IMG/VR virus record: IMGVR_UViG_3300010361_000764
Span: 1-42,865 of that record
Reading direction: 5' to 3' (one strand)
DNA length: 42,865 bases
DNA from: a virus
Taxonomy: Duplodnaviria; Caudoviricetes
Positions 399 through 23,367 of this stretch are shown here, piece by piece (within the stretch, counting starts at the first letter, position 1; each line of letters begins with the position of its first letter). A program made the translations under genes and the position numbers. The notes beneath the pieces were generated by a model. The model worked only from the letters and a program-made list of their open reading frames with translations. It was not told where the DNA came from and did not search any database.

Positions 399-1177
399 GC
401 ACCACCATGTACGATTCTATTTTCCCCGACAACCTCCCCCCGGGCGGCGCCTACCTCGGGTACGTCAACGGGAACTGGCCCACCTTCCCCATCCTCGTTA
501 AGCGGTTCCCCGGCGCGCACCTGCTCGACATGACGGTTTTCGCCGCCGGTGACGCCACGGGCTGTGACTGCGAGACAGGTGACCTCTCCCCCGCCCAGGT
601 CCCCGGGTGGGTGGCACGGCAACTCGCACGCGGCGTGCACCGCCCCGTGGTGTACGCCAGTGCGGGGGTGATGCCGGGGGTGATGGCCCTCCTCGAGGGC
701 GCGGGGATCACCCGGGAACAGGTCCGCCTGCTATCAGCGCACTACTCCGGGGAGCACATCTGCGGGCCGGCGACGTGCCGGGCCTCCGATGGGGCGGGGC
801 GGATCGTGCCGGCGTGTGACGGCACCCAGTGGAGTGATTCGGCACCCGGGGTGAACGGCACCACCGTTGACATCTCGGTTCTCGCCGACGGGTTCTTCGA
901 CACCCCCCCGCCGCCCCCCGCGCCCGCGCCGGAACCGGTACCAGTATCAAAGAAGGGAGCGCCTCCGATGATTCTCATCGAGGTTGCGCGTAACGAGGTC
1001 CCCGCCGGCACCACGTGGCCCGGGGTGTTCCTCCTCGCCTCCGACGGCACACTGCATCACGTCACCGCCACCGAGGGCGGCATCTCCAACGTAGCCGCCT
1101 ACCAGGCGGCGGGCATCCCCGGGCCGGTGACAATCTCCTGGGCCGAATACCAGGCGCGCATCGCCTCCCCGGCCTGA
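395..1177 (+). CDS. Putative endolysin (GH25/DUF1906-like glycoside hydrolase, Pro linker, C-terminal domain)
   Basis: Motifs YLGYVNG, CDCETGD, RPVVYAS, GTQW..VDISV and a PPPPPAPAPEP linker; flanked by holin-like genes. Confidence 0.65.
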   Translation: MSTTMYDSIFPDNLPPGGAYLGYVNGNWPTFPILVKRFPGAHLLDMTVFAAGDATGCDCETGDLSPAQVPGWVARQLARGVHRPVVYASAGVMPGVMALLEGAGITREQVRLLSAHYSGEHICGPATCRASDGAGRIVPACDGTQWSDSAPGVNGTTVDISVLADGFFDTPPPPPAPAPEPVPVSKKGAPPMILIEVARNEVPAGTTWPGVFLLASDGTLHHVTATEGGISNVAAYQAAGIPGPVTISWAEYQARIASPA

Positions 1178-1416
1178 TGGGCGCCGCCGGGGGGCCTGTG
1201 GAAACGAAAACGGCCGCAGGCGCGGCCGTGTCGGTGGTAACCGGCGTGATCACATGGGTGCTGGTGACATACGTGCCCGCGTTCGCCCACGGCCTGCCGC
1301 CGTCGTTGGCGGCGTTCCTCCCGTGGGTGGTCTCCGCACTGTTGGGGGCCGCGTCTTCGTGGGCTGCGCCGCACACCCCCCGCCCGGATGCGGCGGGGGG
1401 CGGGGCGGGCAAGTGA
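1177..1416 (+). CDS. Putative holin (2 TM)
   Basis: ATG overlaps the endolysin stop (TGATG); VETK...two TM helices...APHTPR pattern resembles actinophage holins. Confidence 0.6.
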   Translation: MGAAGGPVETKTAAGAAVSVVTGVITWVLVTYVPAFAHGLPPSLAAFLPWVVSALLGAASSWAAPHTPRPDAAGGGAGK

Positions 1417-1545
1417 TTCGCCACCGGATGTTTTGACGTGCTACCCGTTACACCACTGCGGCACGTTCAGCCGCAGGCGGGGAGTCGAACCCCGCTCCTC
1501 CTCATTTGCAGTGAGATAACCCGGCAAACTCCCGGCCCGCCCCGC
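1400..1545 (-). ncRNA. yrlA: Y RNA (YrlA-like) containing a circularly permuted tRNA-Cys-like domain
   Basis: Terminal helix GCGGGGCGGGC-C-GGG / CUU-GCCCGCCCCGC. Inside: UCUCA-CUGCAAA-UGAGG arm, T arm GCGGGG-UUCGACU-CCCCGC, loop-closed acceptor CUGCGGC-UGAACGU-GCCGCAG, then D arm UGGUGUAACGGGUAGCAC. Confidence 0.85.
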
Positions 1546-1569
1546 AACCCGGGTGCGTGATGACGTGCG

Positions 1570-1648
1570 GGGCAACGGGCAAATTTTAACCGGGGTACCG
1601 GGTTTCTTTTGCAAAGGAGGTAACCGGTACCCATCCGGCCCGCGCCGC
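1570..1648 (-). ncRNA. Short Y RNA-like gene (no T or D arms)
   Basis: Same scaffold: CGGGC-C-GG...GGGUACCGG-UUA-CCUCCUUUGCAAAAG-AAAC-CCGGUACCC...UUUGCCCG. A TAGAAT -10 lies just upstream. Ends approximate. Confidence 0.75.
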
Positions 1649-1659
1649 TCGTGACCCCT

Positions 1660-2394
1660 TTATTCTACCCGGCTTTCGCGGATATCTGCGAGTGACGCCG
1701 CTATCTCCCCTGCCGGGCCCCGCAACCGCTCCCACGCGCAAGGCACGTGACGGTACGGCCGTGAACGTGCCATGCCAACGTTCCCGCCGTACCGCTTTTT
1801 TAGCCGCGCATCCTGTTTCGCACGCTTCTTGTCGTGCCACTGGGGTGCGCACTTTTTCCTGTCGTTGCCGTATTTACGCCAGATGTTCCGCGCCATCGCC
1901 ACCGTAGCCTCCTCCATGGTGGCGCCGTGCGCGTCAATATCCGGGTTGTGGTAACGGTTCGGGCAGGTGTCACCGCCGCCGCCGGCGAGGTCATCGGGCC
2001 ACGCGAACTCCCCCGCCTCAAGCCACACCTCGGTTCGGGTGTTGAGGCCACTGTCGGCGCTGTGACGGCCGGTGGCGGGGTCAACGCGCATCACCCACGT
2101 GGTAACCCCATCCCACCCCCCGTCGTGGTTGAGGTTGCGTACGTCTACCGCCTGCTGGTTGGGCCACTTCTCCTCAAAGCGCCAGAACATGGGGTGGAGC
2201 TGGATGTAGCGCCATGCCGTGAAGTAGCACGGGTTCGCCTGGAACGCCCGGACCGCCTCGTCCCAGTCTTCGGTGACGTACCGCCAGATGTCACGGTAGA
2301 GGTGCTTCTTGCGTTTCACCGCCGCCGCGTCATCGGCTATGTCGGAGACATCCAGGCGGGGCATGGCGGGCAGTTGGTACACCTTGTGCTTCAC
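1660..2394 (-). CDS. Hypothetical protein
   Basis: Long, aromatic-rich ORF; likely GTG start overlapping the upstream stop at 2391-2394. Confidence 0.6.
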   Translation of the reverse strand: MKHKVYQLPAMPRLDVSDIADDAAAVKRKKHLYRDIWRYVTEDWDEAVRAFQANPCYFTAWRYIQLHPMFWRFEEKWPNQQAVDVRNLNHDGGWDGVTTWVMRVDPATGRHSADSGLNTRTEVWLEAGEFAWPDDLAGGGGDTCPNRYHNPDIDAHGATMEEATVAMARNIWRKYGNDRKKCAPQWHDKKRAKQDARLKKRYGGNVGMARSRPYRHVPCAWERLRGPAGEIAASLADIRESRVE

Positions 2395-4294: not shown

Positions 4295-5785
4295 CTACCG
4301 GTGCGCCCCGTTCTTCGGGGCCGCAACCTCGAACCTGGAACGCGCAACACTCGTGCGCCCCAGGGCATCCTCGACGATGCCCGTGAACACCCTGCCCAGC
4401 GTCGGCTGGGAGTGCTCCCCCTCGGGGGCGGTGTTCATCAGGTTGAACTGGGGCCGCAGGTCATTCGCGGCGTTCACCAGGTCACCCGTAGAAATCGAGA
4501 TGACCTTCCCGTTGTTCCGCACCGCGCTATCACGCGCGGCCCGGGAAACGGCCTCCACCACGAACGAGGGGAAGTACCCCTCCATCGCCCCGGCCACCTG
4601 CGCCCAGTCGATGTTCGCGTCGAGGGCGCCGCCCGGGGCCACGCCCCGCACCAGCCGCTCGAACGCCTCGGCGTCGAGGGCGCCAATCTCGATGTAGGCG
4701 TCAATGCGGCCGGGCCGCAGCACGCCCCTATCGATCTTGTCGGGGAAGTTGGTCGTGAAAATCGAAAGGACCTCAAGACCCTTGGTGGAGACGCTATCCA
4801 TCTGGTCGAGGAGCGCCGCCACGGCCTTCCGATCCTGGCCCGCAGTCTCCAGGTCAAGGTCTTCGATGAACACCACCGCCGGCGCGTAAATCCGCGCCGT
4901 GTTCAACGCCTCCTTCGCGTTGTCCTTCCCCGAGCGCACCAGGATATACGTCCACCCCGCCGCTACCGCCTCGCGGGCCGTGAGCGCACCCGCCAGTGAC
5001 TTGCCAACCCCGTAGGGGCCGCCGAGGAGAACCGCCCGCTTGAGGCTAACCCCCTGCTCGCGGAGCTCCTCGTCGTACCGCAGCACGGCCCACACGTTCC
5101 GCTCCAGCGCGCCCATCACATCCTGGGTGTAGACCGCCGGGGGAAGGTGGTCGAGGTCGAGGAACGAGGGCCGGTGGTCATCGGCGTTGATGGCCTTGCC
5201 CCGGTAAATAGAACGCTCATCGAGCTCGTGGCGCACCAGGTCGAAGAACGCCTCGGCCTCGGCGCGGTACCGGCGCGGCGCGGTGACGTGAAGGTCGAAG
5301 ACTATGCCGTCTTCGGTACGGTCGGCTTCGAGGTCAAAGTAACCCCACCCGGGGATCTGGACGCGGCCCCACGGAACCTGCAGGGTTTCCCCGTGCGGGC
5401 CCACGGCCACCGAAACCAGTTCCGGGAGGTACTTCTGGCCGAACATCCCGTAGGTGACACGCCCCAGGCCGGCGGAGCCGAACATCAGGCGCACAGCCCT
5501 ATCGAACGCCGCCGCCCCGTCATACGGGCGGTAGGGGAACGTGCGGCTGAACTCGAATTCCTCGCCCTGCTGCTTCTCGTAATCCCGGAGGAAATCCTGG
5601 GCGCGGCCCAGGCCGCCCTCCCCGGCGAACTGGGCGGGGAGCACGAACCGTGTTCCCGCGCACGTCACCGAGTCATCGTTCATGGCGGAGCCCATCAGCG
5701 AGGCGAGGCCGGCGCGGAACCTATCCCGCGCCTCCTCCTCCGCAGACTTCACGGGCACCACATTCGCCGCATTCGCGTCAACCAT
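4295..5785 (-). CDS. AAA+ ATPase (classic AAA clade)
   Basis: Walker A GPYGVGKS, Walker B VVFIEDLD, sensor TTN, arginine finger RPGRID. Start 5785 follows GAAGGGAAGGGAAGG; alternative start 5833. Confidence 0.9.
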   Translation of the reverse strand: MVDANAANVVPVKSAEEEARDRFRAGLASLMGSAMNDDSVTCAGTRFVLPAQFAGEGGLGRAQDFLRDYEKQQGEEFEFSRTFPYRPYDGAAAFDRAVRLMFGSAGLGRVTYGMFGQKYLPELVSVAVGPHGETLQVPWGRVQIPGWGYFDLEADRTEDGIVFDLHVTAPRRYRAEAEAFFDLVRHELDERSIYRGKAINADDHRPSFLDLDHLPPAVYTQDVMGALERNVWAVLRYDEELREQGVSLKRAVLLGGPYGVGKSLAGALTAREAVAAGWTYILVRSGKDNAKEALNTARIYAPAVVFIEDLDLETAGQDRKAVAALLDQMDSVSTKGLEVLSIFTTNFPDKIDRGVLRPGRIDAYIEIGALDAEAFERLVRGVAPGGALDANIDWAQVAGAMEGYFPSFVVEAVSRAARDSAVRNNGKVISISTGDLVNAANDLRPQFNLMNTAPEGEHSQPTLGRVFTGIVEDALGRTSVARSRFEVAAPKNGAHR

Positions 5786-5829
5786 GCCTGCCTTCCCTTC
5801 CCTTCGTTTCCCTTTGCGTTTCTTTTTGG

Positions 5830-6057
5830 TCATGCGGTTCGCGGGGCCGGCATGCGCAGCGCCGCGCGCCGTGCGAGCCGTTCCGCGCGAGCAGCCATCC
5901 AGGGGGTCATCCCCCCGGCGCGGATGGTGGCGAGGTTACGGCGGGCCGCCTCTTCCTGGGTGCGGCGCCGTGCGTTCGCCCGTGCCCGTGAACGCTGCCA
6001 GCATGCCGTCATCCTTTCCTGGCGTTTCGGGTTGCCAGCAGCCTTCTTCCCAGCCAA
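5830..6057 (-). CDS. Small basic hypothetical protein
   Basis: Arg/Ala-rich ORF preceded by GGAGGGGAAA. Confidence 0.4.
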   Translation of the reverse strand: MAGKKAAGNPKRQERMTACWQRSRARANARRRTQEEAARRNLATIRAGGMTPWMAARAERLARRAALRMPAPRTA

Positions 6058-6085: not shown

Positions 6086-6209
6086 GGCGGCGGCGGGCAA
6101 GTTTTCCGCTCGCCGGGTTTTGCTCGCCTTGAGCACCACCCCCCAAGGGGGGTGGTACAGGAATCGAACCTGTCAACGGTAACCGGCTTGCACCCGGCCC
6201 GCCGCCACC
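6086..6209 (-). ncRNA. yrlA: Y RNA (YrlA-like) with T, acceptor and D arms but no anticodon hairpin
   Basis: GGUGGCGGCGGGC-C-GGG / CUU-GCCCGCCGCCGCC helix; ACAGG-UUCGAUU-CCUGU; ACCACCCCCC-UU-GGGGGGUGGU; GCUC-AAGGC-GAGC; TATAGT -10 just upstream. Confidence 0.85.
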
Positions 6210-6222
6210 ATGAACTATACCG

Positions 6223-6438
6223 CTACTTTGCGGTGACCTTCCCGAAATTCTCGATGATCTGCACGATGGTCTGGCCGGCTGGATAGACCAGGTCATGCCA
6301 CCCGAAACGGAGCACGCCGATGATGAACCCGGCGCCCAGAAGCAGGAGGAGTTTGATGCCAATGCCGGCTGTGCCGATTTTCACGGCCTTGTCCATGATC
6401 GTGTCGATCATGTCGGTGATCTTGCTAAACGGGTTCAT
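6223..6438 (-). CDS. Small membrane protein
   Basis: One or two hydrophobic segments; preceded by GGGAAGGGAA. Confidence 0.6.
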   Translation of the reverse strand: MNPFSKITDMIDTIMDKAVKIGTAGIGIKLLLLLGAGFIIGVLRFGWHDLVYPAGQTIVQIIENFGKVTAK

Positions 6439-7090: not shown

Positions 7091-8764
7091 CTACCGGATG
7101 AACCCCGCCACGAGGGCGGGGATAGTCGCGTCGAGGCCGGCGACGTTCAGCACGCCCTCGTCACGCGGGTCACCAATGCTGCGGCCGTTCGCGGTCATCG
7201 AGACCACTACCACCTTGCACGCGGGGTTAACCGCCCGGCGGTACGCCTCCAGCGCCTCCGAGGCGTGCCACCCACCGGCCCAGGTTTCGTTGTCGGTGAA
7301 GACAACGATCCCATCGGCGCAGACCTTCTCCCGGGTTGCCCACAGGAACGGCAACGCCATGTCGGTGCCCCCGCCGTGGGGGTTGCGGTGCGAGCCGATC
7401 TCGGCGATTGACGTGCGAGCGTTCACCAACGAGGGGTGCACGCTCGTGTCAACCTCGATGACGTGAACGTTCGGCTCGGCTCGTGCCAGCATCATCGCCA
7501 TGACGAGTGCCACCTGGTACACGTTGCCGATGGGCGCACCCGAGGCGAGGTGCATCGCCGAGCCCATGGAACCGGAACAGTCAACGGCTACCAGCAGCCG
7601 CTTCCCCGTGGGCGTCACCGAGCCGAACGCCGCCTCCCAAGCCCGGTCCAGGGCACCGAGAACGGTATTCACCGGCTGCCACGTCACCGGCGGCTTGCCC
7701 GGGTGGGGCTGTGACACGCCGGCGGCGTACGCCTGCTGTGCGAGCCACAAATCGGCGGGGTGGAGACGGGAACGCCGCACGGCCTCCCCATCGGAGAGCC
7801 GGTCAACAACCTTCGCCGTGGTGGGCGCCATGGGCGTGATCGCCCCGTTACGGGTCATCAGGGCGAGGTTACGCACCAGGGCGGTCATTCCGGTGGTACC
7901 TGCTAGTTCCCGCCACGCGGCGGCGTCACGCAACTCCGAGGGGATGAACTCCCACGGGGTACGCGGGTTCGCCGCGATGAACGCCACCGCCTCCTTTGAC
8001 GTGACCAGCCCCTGCGCTGCGGTGAACTGGCCGATCACCGGAATGACCTCGGCGGCGACCACATCGGGTACCTTCCCGCCGATCCACGCGAACAGGGTGT
8101 TACGGCGCGGGTCGGCGGTGAACGGGTGGAACTTGCGGAGAATGTCATGCGCTGACACGTCTTCGCCGGCGGAGGTCTTCCGCGAATTCCCCTTCGCGAT
8201 GCTGAACGCGAGGTCGTCAACATCCGGACGCAACAGCAGCGAGGAGAACAGGCGCCGCGCGGCGCGCCCCGAGGGCATCGTCGGCTCGTTGTCACCCGCA
8301 CGCGGCTTGCCCGCCACCTGGCGGTAGTACCCCCAGAACATGCTGCGGTGAAAACTGGTGCGGATAGCCTCCCAGGCGTGGTCTTCGATCCACAGCCGCG
8401 CCTCGTGACCGCCCTTCGCGTGGGCGTACGCGAGCACGTAGAGGCCGCCGTGGGGGCGGGGGGCGCGCTGCGGGAACCCCGTGAGGCACTCGTGGGCGAG
8501 TACGGCGGCGCCCAGCGGGTCGGCGGCAACGGCGTCGTTGACCCGCGCGAGGTTGCCGAGGGTGTGCTCGCGCTCGTTGACGTAGTACGTGCCGCCGGCG
8601 GTGCCGGTGATGATGAAATCGGCGAGGTTCTCCCGGTGGTTCTTGGAGAACACGTAACCCCCTGCGGGGTTCGCTACCATGTCTGCCGCGCGGCCCGGCA
8701 GGGGCCGTGTCTGGGGGGTGCCGCCGGTCACTGCGGCGGCGATGGGGTCACGGATGGGGGACAC
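7091..8764 (-). CDS. rsr: Ro60/Rsr orthologue (TROVE domain + vWA)
   Basis: MVANPAGGYVF and GTAGGTYY N-terminal motifs, HDILRKFHP, MTALVRNL, SRLHP, vWA MIDAS LLVAVDCSGSM, GGGTD, FTDNETW, VAGLD; GAGGAGG RBS. Confidence 0.95.
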   Translation of the reverse strand: MSPIRDPIAAAVTGGTPQTRPLPGRAADMVANPAGGYVFSKNHRENLADFIITGTAGGTYYVNEREHTLGNLARVNDAVAADPLGAAVLAHECLTGFPQRAPRPHGGLYVLAYAHAKGGHEARLWIEDHAWEAIRTSFHRSMFWGYYRQVAGKPRAGDNEPTMPSGRAARRLFSSLLLRPDVDDLAFSIAKGNSRKTSAGEDVSAHDILRKFHPFTADPRRNTLFAWIGGKVPDVVAAEVIPVIGQFTAAQGLVTSKEAVAFIAANPRTPWEFIPSELRDAAAWRELAGTTGMTALVRNLALMTRNGAITPMAPTTAKVVDRLSDGEAVRRSRLHPADLWLAQQAYAAGVSQPHPGKPPVTWQPVNTVLGALDRAWEAAFGSVTPTGKRLLVAVDCSGSMGSAMHLASGAPIGNVYQVALVMAMMLARAEPNVHVIEVDTSVHPSLVNARTSIAEIGSHRNPHGGGTDMALPFLWATREKVCADGIVVFTDNETWAGGWHASEALEAYRRAVNPACKVVVVSMTANGRSIGDPRDEGVLNVAGLDATIPALVAGFIR

Positions 8765-8811
8765 TATTTCCTCCTCGTGTATTCGGATTTCCCTTCACGT
8801 TCCCTGCTTAG

Positions 8812-8890
8812 GTGCACAGGCAAGTTTGATGGCAACCGGGTTTTATCCTAGTCCCAAACGAGGTAACCGGCTACCGCCCGGCCCGTGCAC
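8812..8890 (-). ncRNA. Short Y RNA directly upstream of rsr
   Basis: GUGCACGGGC-C-GGG / CUU-GCCUGUGCAC; GGUAGCCGG/CCGGUUGCC; internal hairpin CCUCG-UUUGGGA-CUAGG; TATAGT 5 nt upstream. Confidence 0.85.
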
Positions 8891-8913
8891 GCGAAACTAT
8901 ACCGTGAACGCGG

Positions 8914-9055
8914 CGGGGGCGGGCAAGTATTTCGGCTGCCGGGTTTTAAGCGCTCTGCCAAATTGAGCTACCTCCGCCTCGCGGCGGAGACCGGGACTTG
9001 AACCCGGAACCTCTCCATCTCAAGTGGTAACCGGCTGCCACCCGGCCCGCCCCCG
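8914..9055 (-). ncRNA. yrlA: Y RNA (YrlA-like) with a circularly permuted tRNA domain
   Basis: CGGGGGCGGGC-C-GGG / CUU-GCCCGCCCCCG; CCA-CUUGAGA-UGG; AGGUU; CCGGG-UUCAAGU-CCCGG; UCUCCGCC-GCGA-GGCGGAGG; UAGCUCAAUUUGGCAGAGC. Confidence 0.9.
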
Positions 9056-9059
9056 TGGT

Positions 9060-9869
9060 TCATGCTACGGGATGCCAGGTCATGTCCCGTACATCTAGTG
9101 GCGCCCAGGAACCCTTCATGCCGTCACACGCGAGGCCGGTGACCACGCACTGGCCGTAGGGCATGTCAACGAGGCGGGTGTAGGCGGTATGGAGGTGGCC
9201 GTGAACAAGGTAGGCGGGCTGTGCCCGGTTCACCACCCCCTGGAGGCGGTGGGCGTGCCGCGCAGCACGGTCTTTCTCCGCCGGGGGGAACCCGTACTCG
9301 GGGTAGGTGTGCACCACCGCCGAAGGGCAATCGTGGGTGACCATCACATCGGCGTGCTCCGCGCCGGGGGGGAGGGCGGCGCGGATATCATGCTCGCGTA
9401 TCTCCTCGGCGGGGAAGTAGTCAACACCCTCGGTGCGTACGTCACGGTCTAGCGAGGTTGCGCCGCCGAGGGCGAGCCACCGCCGGCCGTGCCACGCCCA
9501 CCGGTACCCCCGCTGGAGCCAGTAGATGTTGGGATGCCCTGGAACGGGCACCTTCGCGGGCACATCTGAGGCACCGAGATCACGCCGCAAGTCCGCTAGC
9601 TGGCCGAGGGTTTCGTGGTCTTCGTGGTTCCCGTCAAGGAACCAGAACTCCATGCCCTCGCGTGCGCAGATCGTTTGCACAATGCCGAGGAACTCGCGGC
9701 CGTACACCATGCGCGGCCAGAACCCGAAGTCCCCGAACTGGAGGACTATTTTGCGTTCCTCGCCGGCGAGTGCCGCCGCTGCGCGGGGCAGCATGTCATA
9801 GGCGTGCCATGGGTTGGCGTGCATGTCACCGGCGCCGACAATGAGCCTGGGCGTGACAACGTTATCCAC
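9060..9869 (-). CDS. Calcineurin-like metallophosphoesterase
   Basis: GDMH, GDFG, DGNHE, THD and HGHLH motifs. Confidence 0.9.
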   Translation of the reverse strand: MDNVVTPRLIVGAGDMHANPWHAYDMLPRAAAALAGEERKIVLQFGDFGFWPRMVYGREFLGIVQTICAREGMEFWFLDGNHEDHETLGQLADLRRDLGASDVPAKVPVPGHPNIYWLQRGYRWAWHGRRWLALGGATSLDRDVRTEGVDYFPAEEIREHDIRAALPPGAEHADVMVTHDCPSAVVHTYPEYGFPPAEKDRAARHAHRLQGVVNRAQPAYLVHGHLHTAYTRLVDMPYGQCVVTGLACDGMKGSWAPLDVRDMTWHPVA

Positions 9870-22461: not shown

Positions 22462-23367
22462 ATGTTCGGATTCAGCATTTTCCTGGCGCTCGTGGCCGTG
22501 GTCGCGGTCATCACCGCCTCGCTCACGAAGGGTGACACCAGGGCCGCCGCAGGTTTCGCCTCCGCCGTCGCGTTCGCCGTGGCCGTCATCGCGGTTCTCG
22601 TCGCCTCGTACTCCCCCGTTGACACCCAGAACATTGGGGTGATCATCTCCTTCGGCAGGCCCGACGGCGAGGTCACCAACGGCATCCACTGGATAGAACC
22701 GTGGGCGGGGATGACGCAAATCGATGGTGCCATCCAGACCCAGACGTTCGAGGGGCCCGGCTGCGTCAACGTGCGCATCGGGCAGCAACAGCAGGCGTGC
22801 GCTGATGTGATTCTCCGGTGGCGCATCCGTCCGCCGGCCGCCGATGCGCTGTACCGGAACTATCACGGCGGCCCGTCGGTGATCGATGACATCTCCGGCT
22901 CCTTGGTTCACCCGGTGTTCGTCAACGCCCTCAACGCCAACCTCGACACCTATGACCCGGTTGCGGCGACCACCGCCACCCCGGGTAGTGCCGCCAACCC
23001 CCACCTTGCCGACATAGCGAGGGCGGTCGCCGCGCAGATGCGCGGGGACCTACGCGGCCAGATCACCGTCCTATCTGTGACGATCCCGCGCCTCGTCTAC
23101 CCCCAATCGGTGCAGGATCGGATCAACCAGGAGAACCAGCAGGCGGCCCAGACCGTCATTGCGCAGGAGGCGGTGCGCACGGCCCAGGCCCAGGCCCAGG
23201 CCAACGCCGCCCTCTCTCAATCGGTGGCAAAGTCCCCGCTGGTCCTTGTCGCGGAGTGCATGAACGTGATCGAGGCGCTCCAGAAGTCCGGCCAGAGCAT
23301 CCCGGTGGGGTTCTCGTGCTGGCCCGGCGCTAACAGCGGCGTCAACATCCTCGCCAACGGCGGCTAG
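22462..23367 (+). CDS. SPFH/band-7 membrane protein
   Basis: Two TM segments, GVIISFGRP..NGIHWIEPW, and an AQAQAQAN coiled coil. Confidence 0.85.
   Translation: MFGFSIFLALVAVVAVITASLTKGDTRAAAGFASAVAFAVAVIAVLVASYSPVDTQNIGVIISFGRPDGEVTNGIHWIEPWAGMTQIDGAIQTQTFEGPGCVNVRIGQQQQACADVILRWRIRPPAADALYRNYHGGPSVIDDISGSLVHPVFVNALNANLDTYDPVAATTATPGSAANPHLADIARAVAAQMRGDLRGQITVLSVTIPRLVYPQSVQDRINQENQQAAQTVIAQEAVRTAQAQAQANAALSQSVAKSPLVLVAECMNVIEALQKSGQSIPVGFSCWPGANSGVNILANGG

Follow-up and report, generated by a model that had tools for sequence, protein, structure and literature searches.

A phage Y RNA of the YrlA type carries a permuted tRNA domain with an anticodon arm: a feature of the wider family and a possible anticodon bait

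The window, meaning the whole stretch of 42,865 nucleotides that was analysed, is an entire virus record (IMG/VR IMGVR_UViG_3300010361_000764) with an estimated completeness of 52%, in which holin, terminase, and recombination genes are present. A Ro60/Rsr gene was identified on its minus strand, and its product matched NF041674 at 2e-80, under the cut-off of that model. The nearest Ro60 proteins in genomes were those of Streptosporangiales, with 41–54% identity to the window protein; thus, the phage host is probably an actinomycete. Several Y RNAs were found on the same strand, and canonical tRNAs Arg(ACG) and Met(CAU) sit between them. The features are as follows.

1400..1545, minus strand: Y3, a YrlA-type Y RNA that contains an entire permuted tRNA domain (fold, ARAGORN, covariance model)
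1560..1657, minus strand: Y5, a probable small hairpin-type Y RNA (15.8 bits, E 0.009, a weak match)
6086..6216, minus strand: Y2, a short Y RNA with a T arm, an acceptor hairpin, and a reduced D arm (42.5 bits)
7091..8764, minus strand: Ro60/Rsr gene, open frame of 557 aa (Pfam vWA_Ro60 1e-41, TROVE 2e-9)
8809..8900, minus strand: Y4, a small hairpin-type Y RNA (23.5 bits, E 9e-5)
8912..9064, minus strand: Y1, a long YrlA with the anticodon arm CU-UGA-GA (covariance model, 107 bits)

Other genes of the window were also recorded. A metallophosphoesterase-like gene (9060-9869, minus strand; phrog_1649) lies directly upstream of Y1 and could encode an RNA end-healing enzyme. A 512-aa AAA ATPase gene (4295-5833, minus strand; phrog_10440) shares a minus-strand block with Ro60, the Y RNAs, and the two tRNAs. 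The same phage carries an SPFH/Band 7 gene (22462-23367, plus strand) and, behind lysis-like genes, a hydrophobic 79-aa ORF (1177-1416, plus strand) without Pfam matches. No sigma-70-type promoter was found within window positions 1200-1900.

Y3 lies on the same strand and record as Ro60, 5.5 kb downstream of the gene, while YrlA RNAs have been found mostly within 4 kb of it (PMC4201824). The preliminary description had placed here a Y RNA holding a near-complete permuted tRNA with an anticodon arm, and all its elements were found in place on the minus strand, including the 6-bp T arm, the 7-bp acceptor stem with a 7-nt loop starting with U, U8-G9, and the D arm. From 5' to 3', Y3 is divided as follows.

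1517..1545, minus strand: 5' strand of the handle, an 11-bp stem predicted to bind Ro60
1500..1516, minus strand: anticodon arm, called the V stem-loop in print (ARAGORN and family comparison)
1477..1499, minus strand: variable region of 4 nt (1499-1496) and T arm of 6 bp (1495-1477)
1456..1476, minus strand: acceptor stem of 7 bp, closing a 7-nt loop with U first (U73 is 1469)
1435..1455, minus strand: U8-G9, D arm (1453-1438, stem GUGU/GCAC), G26, and a second U27-C28
1400..1434, minus strand: A-rich linker followed by the handle's 3' strand, the final 17 nt overlapping the end of the convergent 79-aa ORF

The 5' strand of the handle has a bulged C at 1534, the motif GGGCCGG, and the YUAY family motif at its end. 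GGGCCGG is close to the 5' end and is a variant of the published Ro60-site motif (GNCGAAN0-1G / GGUCCGA-like; PMC4201824). The anticodon arm (1516-1500) has a stem of 5 bp, including one U-G, and the loop CU-GCA-AA at 1511-1505. The second U27-C28, located 3' of the D arm, can pair with positions 43 and 42. An RNase P site was predicted between 1463 and 1462 by analogy with the cleavage of the M. smegmatis YrlA.

To assign Y3 to a family, a covariance model was used that had been built from 43 Ro60-adjacent long relatives with the window sequences left out, and Y3 scored 71 bits (E 2.6e-17). A search with Rfam RF02553 gave no match for Y3 at the gathering threshold or up to E 5, and Y1 and Y2 scored 35.7 and 23.1 bits, both under the threshold of 69; the RF02553 model has no anticodon or V hairpin. 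When Y3 was compared with 50,697 phage records by blastn, only short chance matches were obtained and no close homologue of the exact RNA. The permuted order by which YrlA RNAs are recognised, with a T arm, a closed acceptor stem, and a D arm, is present in Y3. By anatomy, Y3 is a YrlA-type RNA, even though the Rfam model does not recognise it and its 15:48 pair departs from the standard one. Like published YrlAs, it has the permuted T, acceptor, and D order inside a terminal stem with YUAY (RF02553; PMC4201824; 10.1101/312249), a V stem-loop that precedes the T arm, a Ro60 gene on the same strand, and several Y RNAs at one locus (PMC4201824). It differs from them in its distance from Ro60, its 6-bp T stem, its GUGU/GCAC D stem, and its 15:48 pair.

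The native fold of Y3 had a z-score of -3.68, and 0 of 200 shuffles were equally stable. Re-permutation in silico had been proposed as a check, and the product was called by ARAGORN as tRNA-Cys(GCA) with a score of 115.4 and a full cloverleaf. When the anticodon arm and variable region of the re-permuted sequence were shuffled, a tRNA was still called in 422 of 1000 cases, while none reached 115.3. Re-permutation at 26/27, 27/28, or 28/29 gave an identical product; because the UC dinucleotide is duplicated, the break cannot be placed from Y3 alone. In the computed ensemble, the pairs of the tRNA register in the hairpin had probabilities of only 0.17-0.19, and the minimum-energy fold placed the hairpin in a shifted register that was better by approximately 1 kcal/mol. 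Thus, the tRNA register of Y3 rests on family covariation. The term "high-fidelity" used for a decoy role in the preliminary description proved too strong. The 15:48 pair of Y3 is non-standard (A15 with A or G, the standard Levitt pair being absent), while 112 of 115 family members among the matches listed have G:C or A:U there, and an extra T-stem pair like that of Y3 was found in only 2 of these 115 listed members. Moreover, the body of Y3 is no closer to tRNA-Cys than to other tRNAs, with Cys ranking 13 of 21 tRNA families by mean alignment score, and positions 70-72 are GGC, while most canonical tRNA-Cys have GCC. The variable region of canonical tRNA-Cys is 4 nt in 22 of 25.

The sister RNAs of the window were analysed similarly. 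Y1 was called as tRNA-Ser(UGA), scoring 121.6 when re-permuted at 28/29 and 115.0 at 26/27. Y2 has no anticodon hairpin. Y4 has a handle and a possible stem that would enclose a UU-UGG-GA (Pro-like) loop, and its fold z-score was -3.54, yet the computed fold has pairs within the loop. Y5, directly upstream of Y3, has a handle and a UU-GCA-AA loop on a weak stem, and its z-score was only -0.86. From these sequences, Y4 and Y5 are probably Y RNAs that display only an anticodon-like hairpin. Two ARAGORN calls on the minus strand, tRNA-Cys at 6148-6224 and tRNA-Ser at 8983-9056, were rejected as tRNAs since the covariance model identified them as Y2 and Y1. Such miscalls of Y RNAs as tRNAs were seen at many other Ro60 loci.

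Published accounts interpret the V stem-loop as a variable arm, and 10.1101/312249 describes YrlA as lacking an anticodon loop, in agreement with the preliminary description. Here, its position, its loop signature, and its covariation in two sets of relatives identify it as an anticodon arm. For the first set, the scan pattern fixed only the handle motif, the T loop, and the D arm, and 11 of 64 parts of the viral contigs and 3 of 64 parts of the genome contigs were covered. At least 262 matches were obtained, 50 were dropped as tandem tRNAs by their ARAGORN score, and Y1 of the window was added by hand; among the matches listed, the handle motif was present in 192 of 213, and 172 remained once redundancy was removed, of which 161 had a long V region and 11 were short YrlAs without the hairpin. 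Among the same listed matches, 98 of the 161 long relatives had a hairpin with three closing pairs, a loop of 7 nt, and a spacer of 5 nt, and when spacers of 4-6 were accepted, the hairpin was found in 115, against a shuffle mean of 32 and a maximum of 48. The set of 115 includes both window RNAs, Y1 and Y3. For the second set, 68 loci were chosen by Ro60 protein similarity with no RNA pattern, and 94 permuted RNAs were found across 53 of them, with the hairpin in 52 of 66 distinct long ones. Consequently, the hairpin is not peculiar to Y3, as had been supposed, and corresponds to the V stem-loop in print.

The loops obey tRNA rules. Among the matches listed, the 115 members have Y32 in 101, U33 in 104, R37 in 105, and A38 in 102, and the 52 hairpins of the second set have U33 in 52, Y32 in 52, R37 in 51, A38 in 48, and a Watson-Crick 28:42 pair in 50. 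In the members with the hairpin, the loop, for which a random size and sequence had been considered, has 7 nt and, in nearly all of them, U33. In the 115 members among the matches listed, the bases just 3' of the D stem form Watson-Crick pairs with 43 in 108 (78 in shuffles), the 28:42 pair is Watson-Crick in 110 (35 in shuffles) with four pair types, and the hairpin's own base at 28 pairs no better than chance (31). Since it is this post-D-arm strand that pairs with 43 and 42, most members are opened at 28/29, and both ends contribute to their anticodon stem. Of the 46 remaining long relatives among the matches listed, 39 have a post-D-arm strand that gives at least four of the five stem pairs, with the break near 31/32, so that the break point across the listed family ranges from 26/27 to 31/32. 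Examples opened near 31/32 include L048:2526, L054:2528, and L075:2524, among others, in which the anticodon stem comes entirely from the post-D-arm strand, with the loop bases attached to the handle.

Among the matches listed, 37 different triplets occur in the 115 members, and the second set has 24, GCA not among them. The triplet turns over faster than the body: it was shared by 4 of 21 nearest neighbours among the matches listed in the first set and by 4 of 17 pairs with a body identity of at least 90% in the second. G37 follows G36 in 22 of 27 members and other bases in 5 of 88 (115 members, among the matches listed), and 64 of these 115 listed loops are identical to a canonical tRNA loop, compared with 40 in column shuffles. 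On a tree, the direction of the 36/37 coupling was kept and significance was not reached (median p 0.06); the tree of the 115 listed bodies is poorly resolved, with 9 of 112 branches starred, and independent-pair tests were not significant. Triplets starting with A were found in 11 of 115 members among the matches listed, compared with 17 of 454 canonical tRNAs. Among the same matches, all 10 Ser-anticodon members have a short variable region and no long arm, while the region is long in 38 of 38 canonical tRNA-Ser, and Tyr members have short variable regions as well. The discriminator matched the anticodon in 33 of 92 listed members against 21 in shuffles, a statistic that ignores relatedness. 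Bacterial genome records hold 44 of the 115 listed members.

In the published YrlA alignment, read by eye, the V loops are 7-nt loops five bases 5' of the T stem, with the triplets UCU (M. smegmatis), CAU (Gordonia), UCU (Streptosporangium), GUU (Rhizobium), and UGA (phage ET08). Taken together, these sequence comparisons indicate that the V stem-loop of YrlA behaves as a true anticodon arm in relatives. No publication naming it as such was found in our search; an earlier mention in key reviews is possible. Y3 is one example of a widespread and apparently unrecognised anticodon arm of the YrlA family, and also of a small Cys subclass.

Several observations were made in addition during these scans. 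A second handle type (GGUG..AGG..GGUUACUUC) bearing the same permuted tRNA domain occurs at L008, L015, L024, L128, and many other loci, often without a nearby Ro60 match to the query used. Among AUG-triplet (His-like) Y RNAs, 3 of 4 (L011, L040, L068) keep C73 paired, forming an eighth acceptor pair as in tRNA-His.

Bare anticodon hairpins were also found. A list of 87 candidate small Y RNAs close to Ro60 genes, which is noisy and includes false positives, contained 21 that had a hairpin with the anticodon-loop signature and no T arm, whereas the shuffle expectation was 4.8 with a maximum of 13. Streptomyces phage Yaboi, for example, has the loop CU-GCA-AA, and CU-GUC-AC was seen in a phage record of the cluster C type. 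Because these hairpins exceed the shuffles, the anticodon loop appears to be kept without an elbow or an acceptor. In cluster C mycobacteriophages, the triplets UGC, UGA, and UGU, which differ at position 36, occur in otherwise near-identical YrlAs. The UGC form was matched at 99% identity or more by 185 of 209 matching phage records, and thus no rapid diversification is seen in this stretch; the UGA form was equalled by 6 records and the UGU form by 2, and a scan of viral contigs for cluster C variants gave 1 locus. The cluster C YrlAs at L291 and L429-L431 have flanking small Y RNAs whose loops carry GAU and GUC, and a predicted hypothetical ORF often overlies these YrlAs.

The GCA anticodon and U73 are major determinants of tRNA-Cys according to PMC9976931, consistent with the preliminary description of Y3. 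From 38 matches in 180 loci, 19 non-redundant GCA-loop Y RNAs were collected after one doubtful match was dropped. A 4-nt variable region was found in 12 of these 19 and in 15 of 114 others. U73 was present in 9 of the 12 GCA-loop members with a 4-nt variable region and in 0 of the 7 whose region has 5 nt; among other Y RNAs, it occurred in 22 of 91. Its co-occurrence with GCA is thus probably not due to chance. When metagenomes were scanned for GCA together with a GUGU D stem, 118 loci were obtained, and the scanner resolved 23 matches from them; among 10 non-redundant, non-tandem members, the variable region was 4 nt in 10 and U73 was present in 7. When one probable tandem tRNA was excluded, position 28 came from the 5' strand itself in 8 of 9 members of this GCA/GUGU subclass. 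Therefore, the break at about 26/27 proposed for Y3, which Y3 itself does not fix, is a fair description of the subclass. In 4 of the 9 U73 cases, this U is the first base of a UNCG-type loop, and the GCA, 4-nt, U73 subclass may be a single clade. On its sequence, Y3 fits this small Cys subclass with GCA, a 4-nt variable region, and mostly U73. In two jumbo phages (L259 in G001 and L270 in G002), the GCA Y RNA lies within the tRNA array and is separated from Ro60 by more than 150 kb. No vWA_Ro60 match was obtained in three of the records that contain a GCA-loop Y RNA.

Permuted architectures of other kinds were compared with Y3. Two-piece tmRNA has a permuted gene, its acceptor end is made by RNase P and CCA addition, and its pieces are paired without ligation. 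Y3 is similarly permuted, its pieces would be paired, and its acceptor end would come from RNase P and CCA addition; unlike tmRNA, it carries a Ro60 handle and a complete anticodon arm but no coding region or SmpB role. The permuted tRNA genes of algae and archaea (10.1101/312249) likewise begin with the 3' part of the tRNA, and their acceptor starts as a closed loop, but their precursors are excised, ligated, and opened into decoding tRNAs, whereas the ends of Y3 run into a Ro60-type handle and the break is unfixed across the family. Among Y RNAs, the YrlA of S. Typhimurium, whose structure is solved, is a short form without the hairpin. The M. smegmatis YrlA resembles Y3 in its 7-bp acceptor stem, its anticodon-form V loop, and its actinobacterial setting, and it has been recovered as the full-length RNA and as two halves produced by RNase P cleavage, the 5' half with CCA; its triplet (UCU) and that of cluster C phage ET08 (UGA) differ from the GCA of Y3. 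Thermus phage phiLo also combines Ro60 with more than one Y-like RNA (Yrl1 and Yrl2), and the main text of PMC12135203 proposes PNPase capture as the function and mentions neither an anticodon nor a tRNA domain.

The anatomy of Y3, the anticodon arm across the family, and the Ro60 gene in the same record are read directly from sequence and comparison. The reading preferred here, at a probability of roughly 0.4, is that Y3 may serve as a Ro60-tethered mimic of a whole tRNA, a bait that would occupy host proteins that read or cut anticodon loops, most plausibly nucleases. Y3 and Y5 would be transcribed from the minus strand, Ro60 would bind the bulged terminal stem of Y3 and stabilise the RNA, and the tip would adopt an L-shaped tRNA fold from which the handle departs between 26 and 29. 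Host RNase P would probably open the loop of the 7-bp acceptor, CCA would be added after U73, and the opened Y3 would be a two-piece RNA joined by the handle without ligation. Its GCA loop could compete with host tRNA-Cys for an anticodon nuclease or a similar reader, and the sister Y RNAs would cover other anticodons. Presentation of the loop to an anticodon reader is suggested because the loops follow tRNA rules, the triplets change fast, panels of triplets occur per locus, and hairpin-only forms exist. Moreover, S. Typhimurium YrlA may competitively inhibit an anticodon nuclease (PMC7790460), mycobacterial hosts encode anticodon nucleases (PMC10264068), and an actinobacterial anticodon nuclease aimed at tRNA-Cys(GCA) has been described (PMC13273310). 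Against the bait stand the probability of approximately 0.19 for the tRNA register of Y3, the non-significant 36/37 coupling, and the lack of diversification in cluster C. The Y RNAs are also not a phage-specific counter-defence since the same ones are found in bacterial genome records, and some triplets match no common host tRNA because, among the matches listed, 11 of 115 start with A. The only phage Ro60-like counter-defence found, that of Bas63 (10.1101/2024.10.10.617714), blocks Ppl, which is a DNA exonuclease (PMC12904381), and this result was therefore rejected as support for a tRNA role. Finally, the coupling of U73 and the 4-nt region to GCA, with the weak discriminator match, would point to recognition by a synthetase, which a nuclease bait does not need.

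These last features fit a chargeable two-piece tRNA mimic, in which RNase P and the CCA enzyme would open the acceptor, CysRS would recognise U73 and GCA as major Cys determinants (PMC9976931), and the Ro60 particle would sequester the synthetase or go to stalled ribosomes. The U73 counts (9 of 12, 0 of 7, and 22 of 91; 7 of 10 in the metagenomes) and a 7-bp acceptor like that of the processed M. smegmatis YrlA agree with it, but 4 of the 9 U73 cases start UNCG-type loops, the subclass may be one clade, and only 33 of 92 discriminators among the matches listed correspond. Ser and Tyr members have short variable regions, Y3 itself deviates by its extra T-stem pair and by its non-standard 15:48 pair, and charging is a doubtful explanation; decoding across the family is unlikely because all 10 listed Ser-anticodon members are without the long arm needed for serine identity. 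Placed ahead of charging, although still unlikely, is a structural role in which Ro60 and a Y RNA recruit PNPase or another elbow-binding effector, the arm being retained as a modifiable anticodon arm whose triplet is irrelevant. RYPER-like complexes of Ro60, Y RNA, and PNPase are established for D. radiodurans and a Thermus phage, hairpin-less short YrlAs exist (11 of 172 among the matches listed, Y2, and S. Typhimurium), and the triplets switch freely, including to A34 forms. Such recruitment leaves unexplained the hairpin-only Y RNAs with tRNA-like loops, the 36/37 coupling, the several triplets arrayed at one locus, and the GCA, 4-nt, U73 subclass.

Improbable in comparison is a damage sensor, in which a cut in the displayed loop would ungate Ro60 or an RNA repair step and report attack on that kind of tRNA. 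The sequence evidence for it is the same as for the bait, Ro60 and Y RNAs occur in operons induced by anticodon-cleaved tRNA (PMC7790460), and the metallophosphoesterase-like gene lies directly upstream of Y1; however, a candidate effector gene is lacking in this analysis, and RtcB, the only ligase searched for, was found neither in the 52%-complete window record nor in any of five related records. The absence of RtcB from these six records also bears on the poorly supported proposal that the RNA is a precursor which, once cut out of the handle, joined across the break, and opened in the acceptor loop, would yield a working tRNA-Cys like the permuted tRNA genes of algae and archaea. The in-silico product does score as tRNA-Cys, the tRNA is nearly continuous in the GCA/GUGU subclass because the 5' strand supplies position 28, and 10.1101/312249 raises processing like that of permuted tRNAs as a possibility. 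Against it, the break point varies from 26/27 to 31/32 among the matches listed, no bulge-helix-bulge is seen by eye at the Y3 junction, and, according to 10.1101/312249, a splicing endonuclease for that motif is unreported in bacteria. Ser-type products would lack the long arm, and the M. smegmatis YrlA, whose V loop has the anticodon form, was recovered at full length and as two halves. A normal tRNA-Cys is also encoded by three jumbo phages that carry a GCA Y RNA, by which a stand-in role for a missing tRNA-Cys was rejected. Religation is the weakest reading and a very improbable one. More broadly, bacterial and phage Ro60 particles might be anticodon-display devices with panels of Y RNAs per locus, either entire tRNA mimics or isolated anticodon hairpins with selected identities. 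The Cys subclass with Y3, maturing through RNase P and CCA to a chargeable two-piece tRNA-Cys attached to a Ro60 handle, would then shield or sense the tRNA pool when anticodon nucleases attack it; this reading is rather unlikely as a whole.

The function of the tRNA-like domain in bacterial and phage Y RNAs has been a question since 2014. If the anticodon arm works in most long YrlAs, the family imitates entire tRNAs, each with a defined identity; such mimicry also explains why tRNAs are miscalled beside Ro60 genes, as in 2 of 4 ARAGORN calls in the window. The function of YrlA would then become testable by simple anticodon swaps, and phage Ro60 genes would be linked to the conflict over tRNA cleavage.
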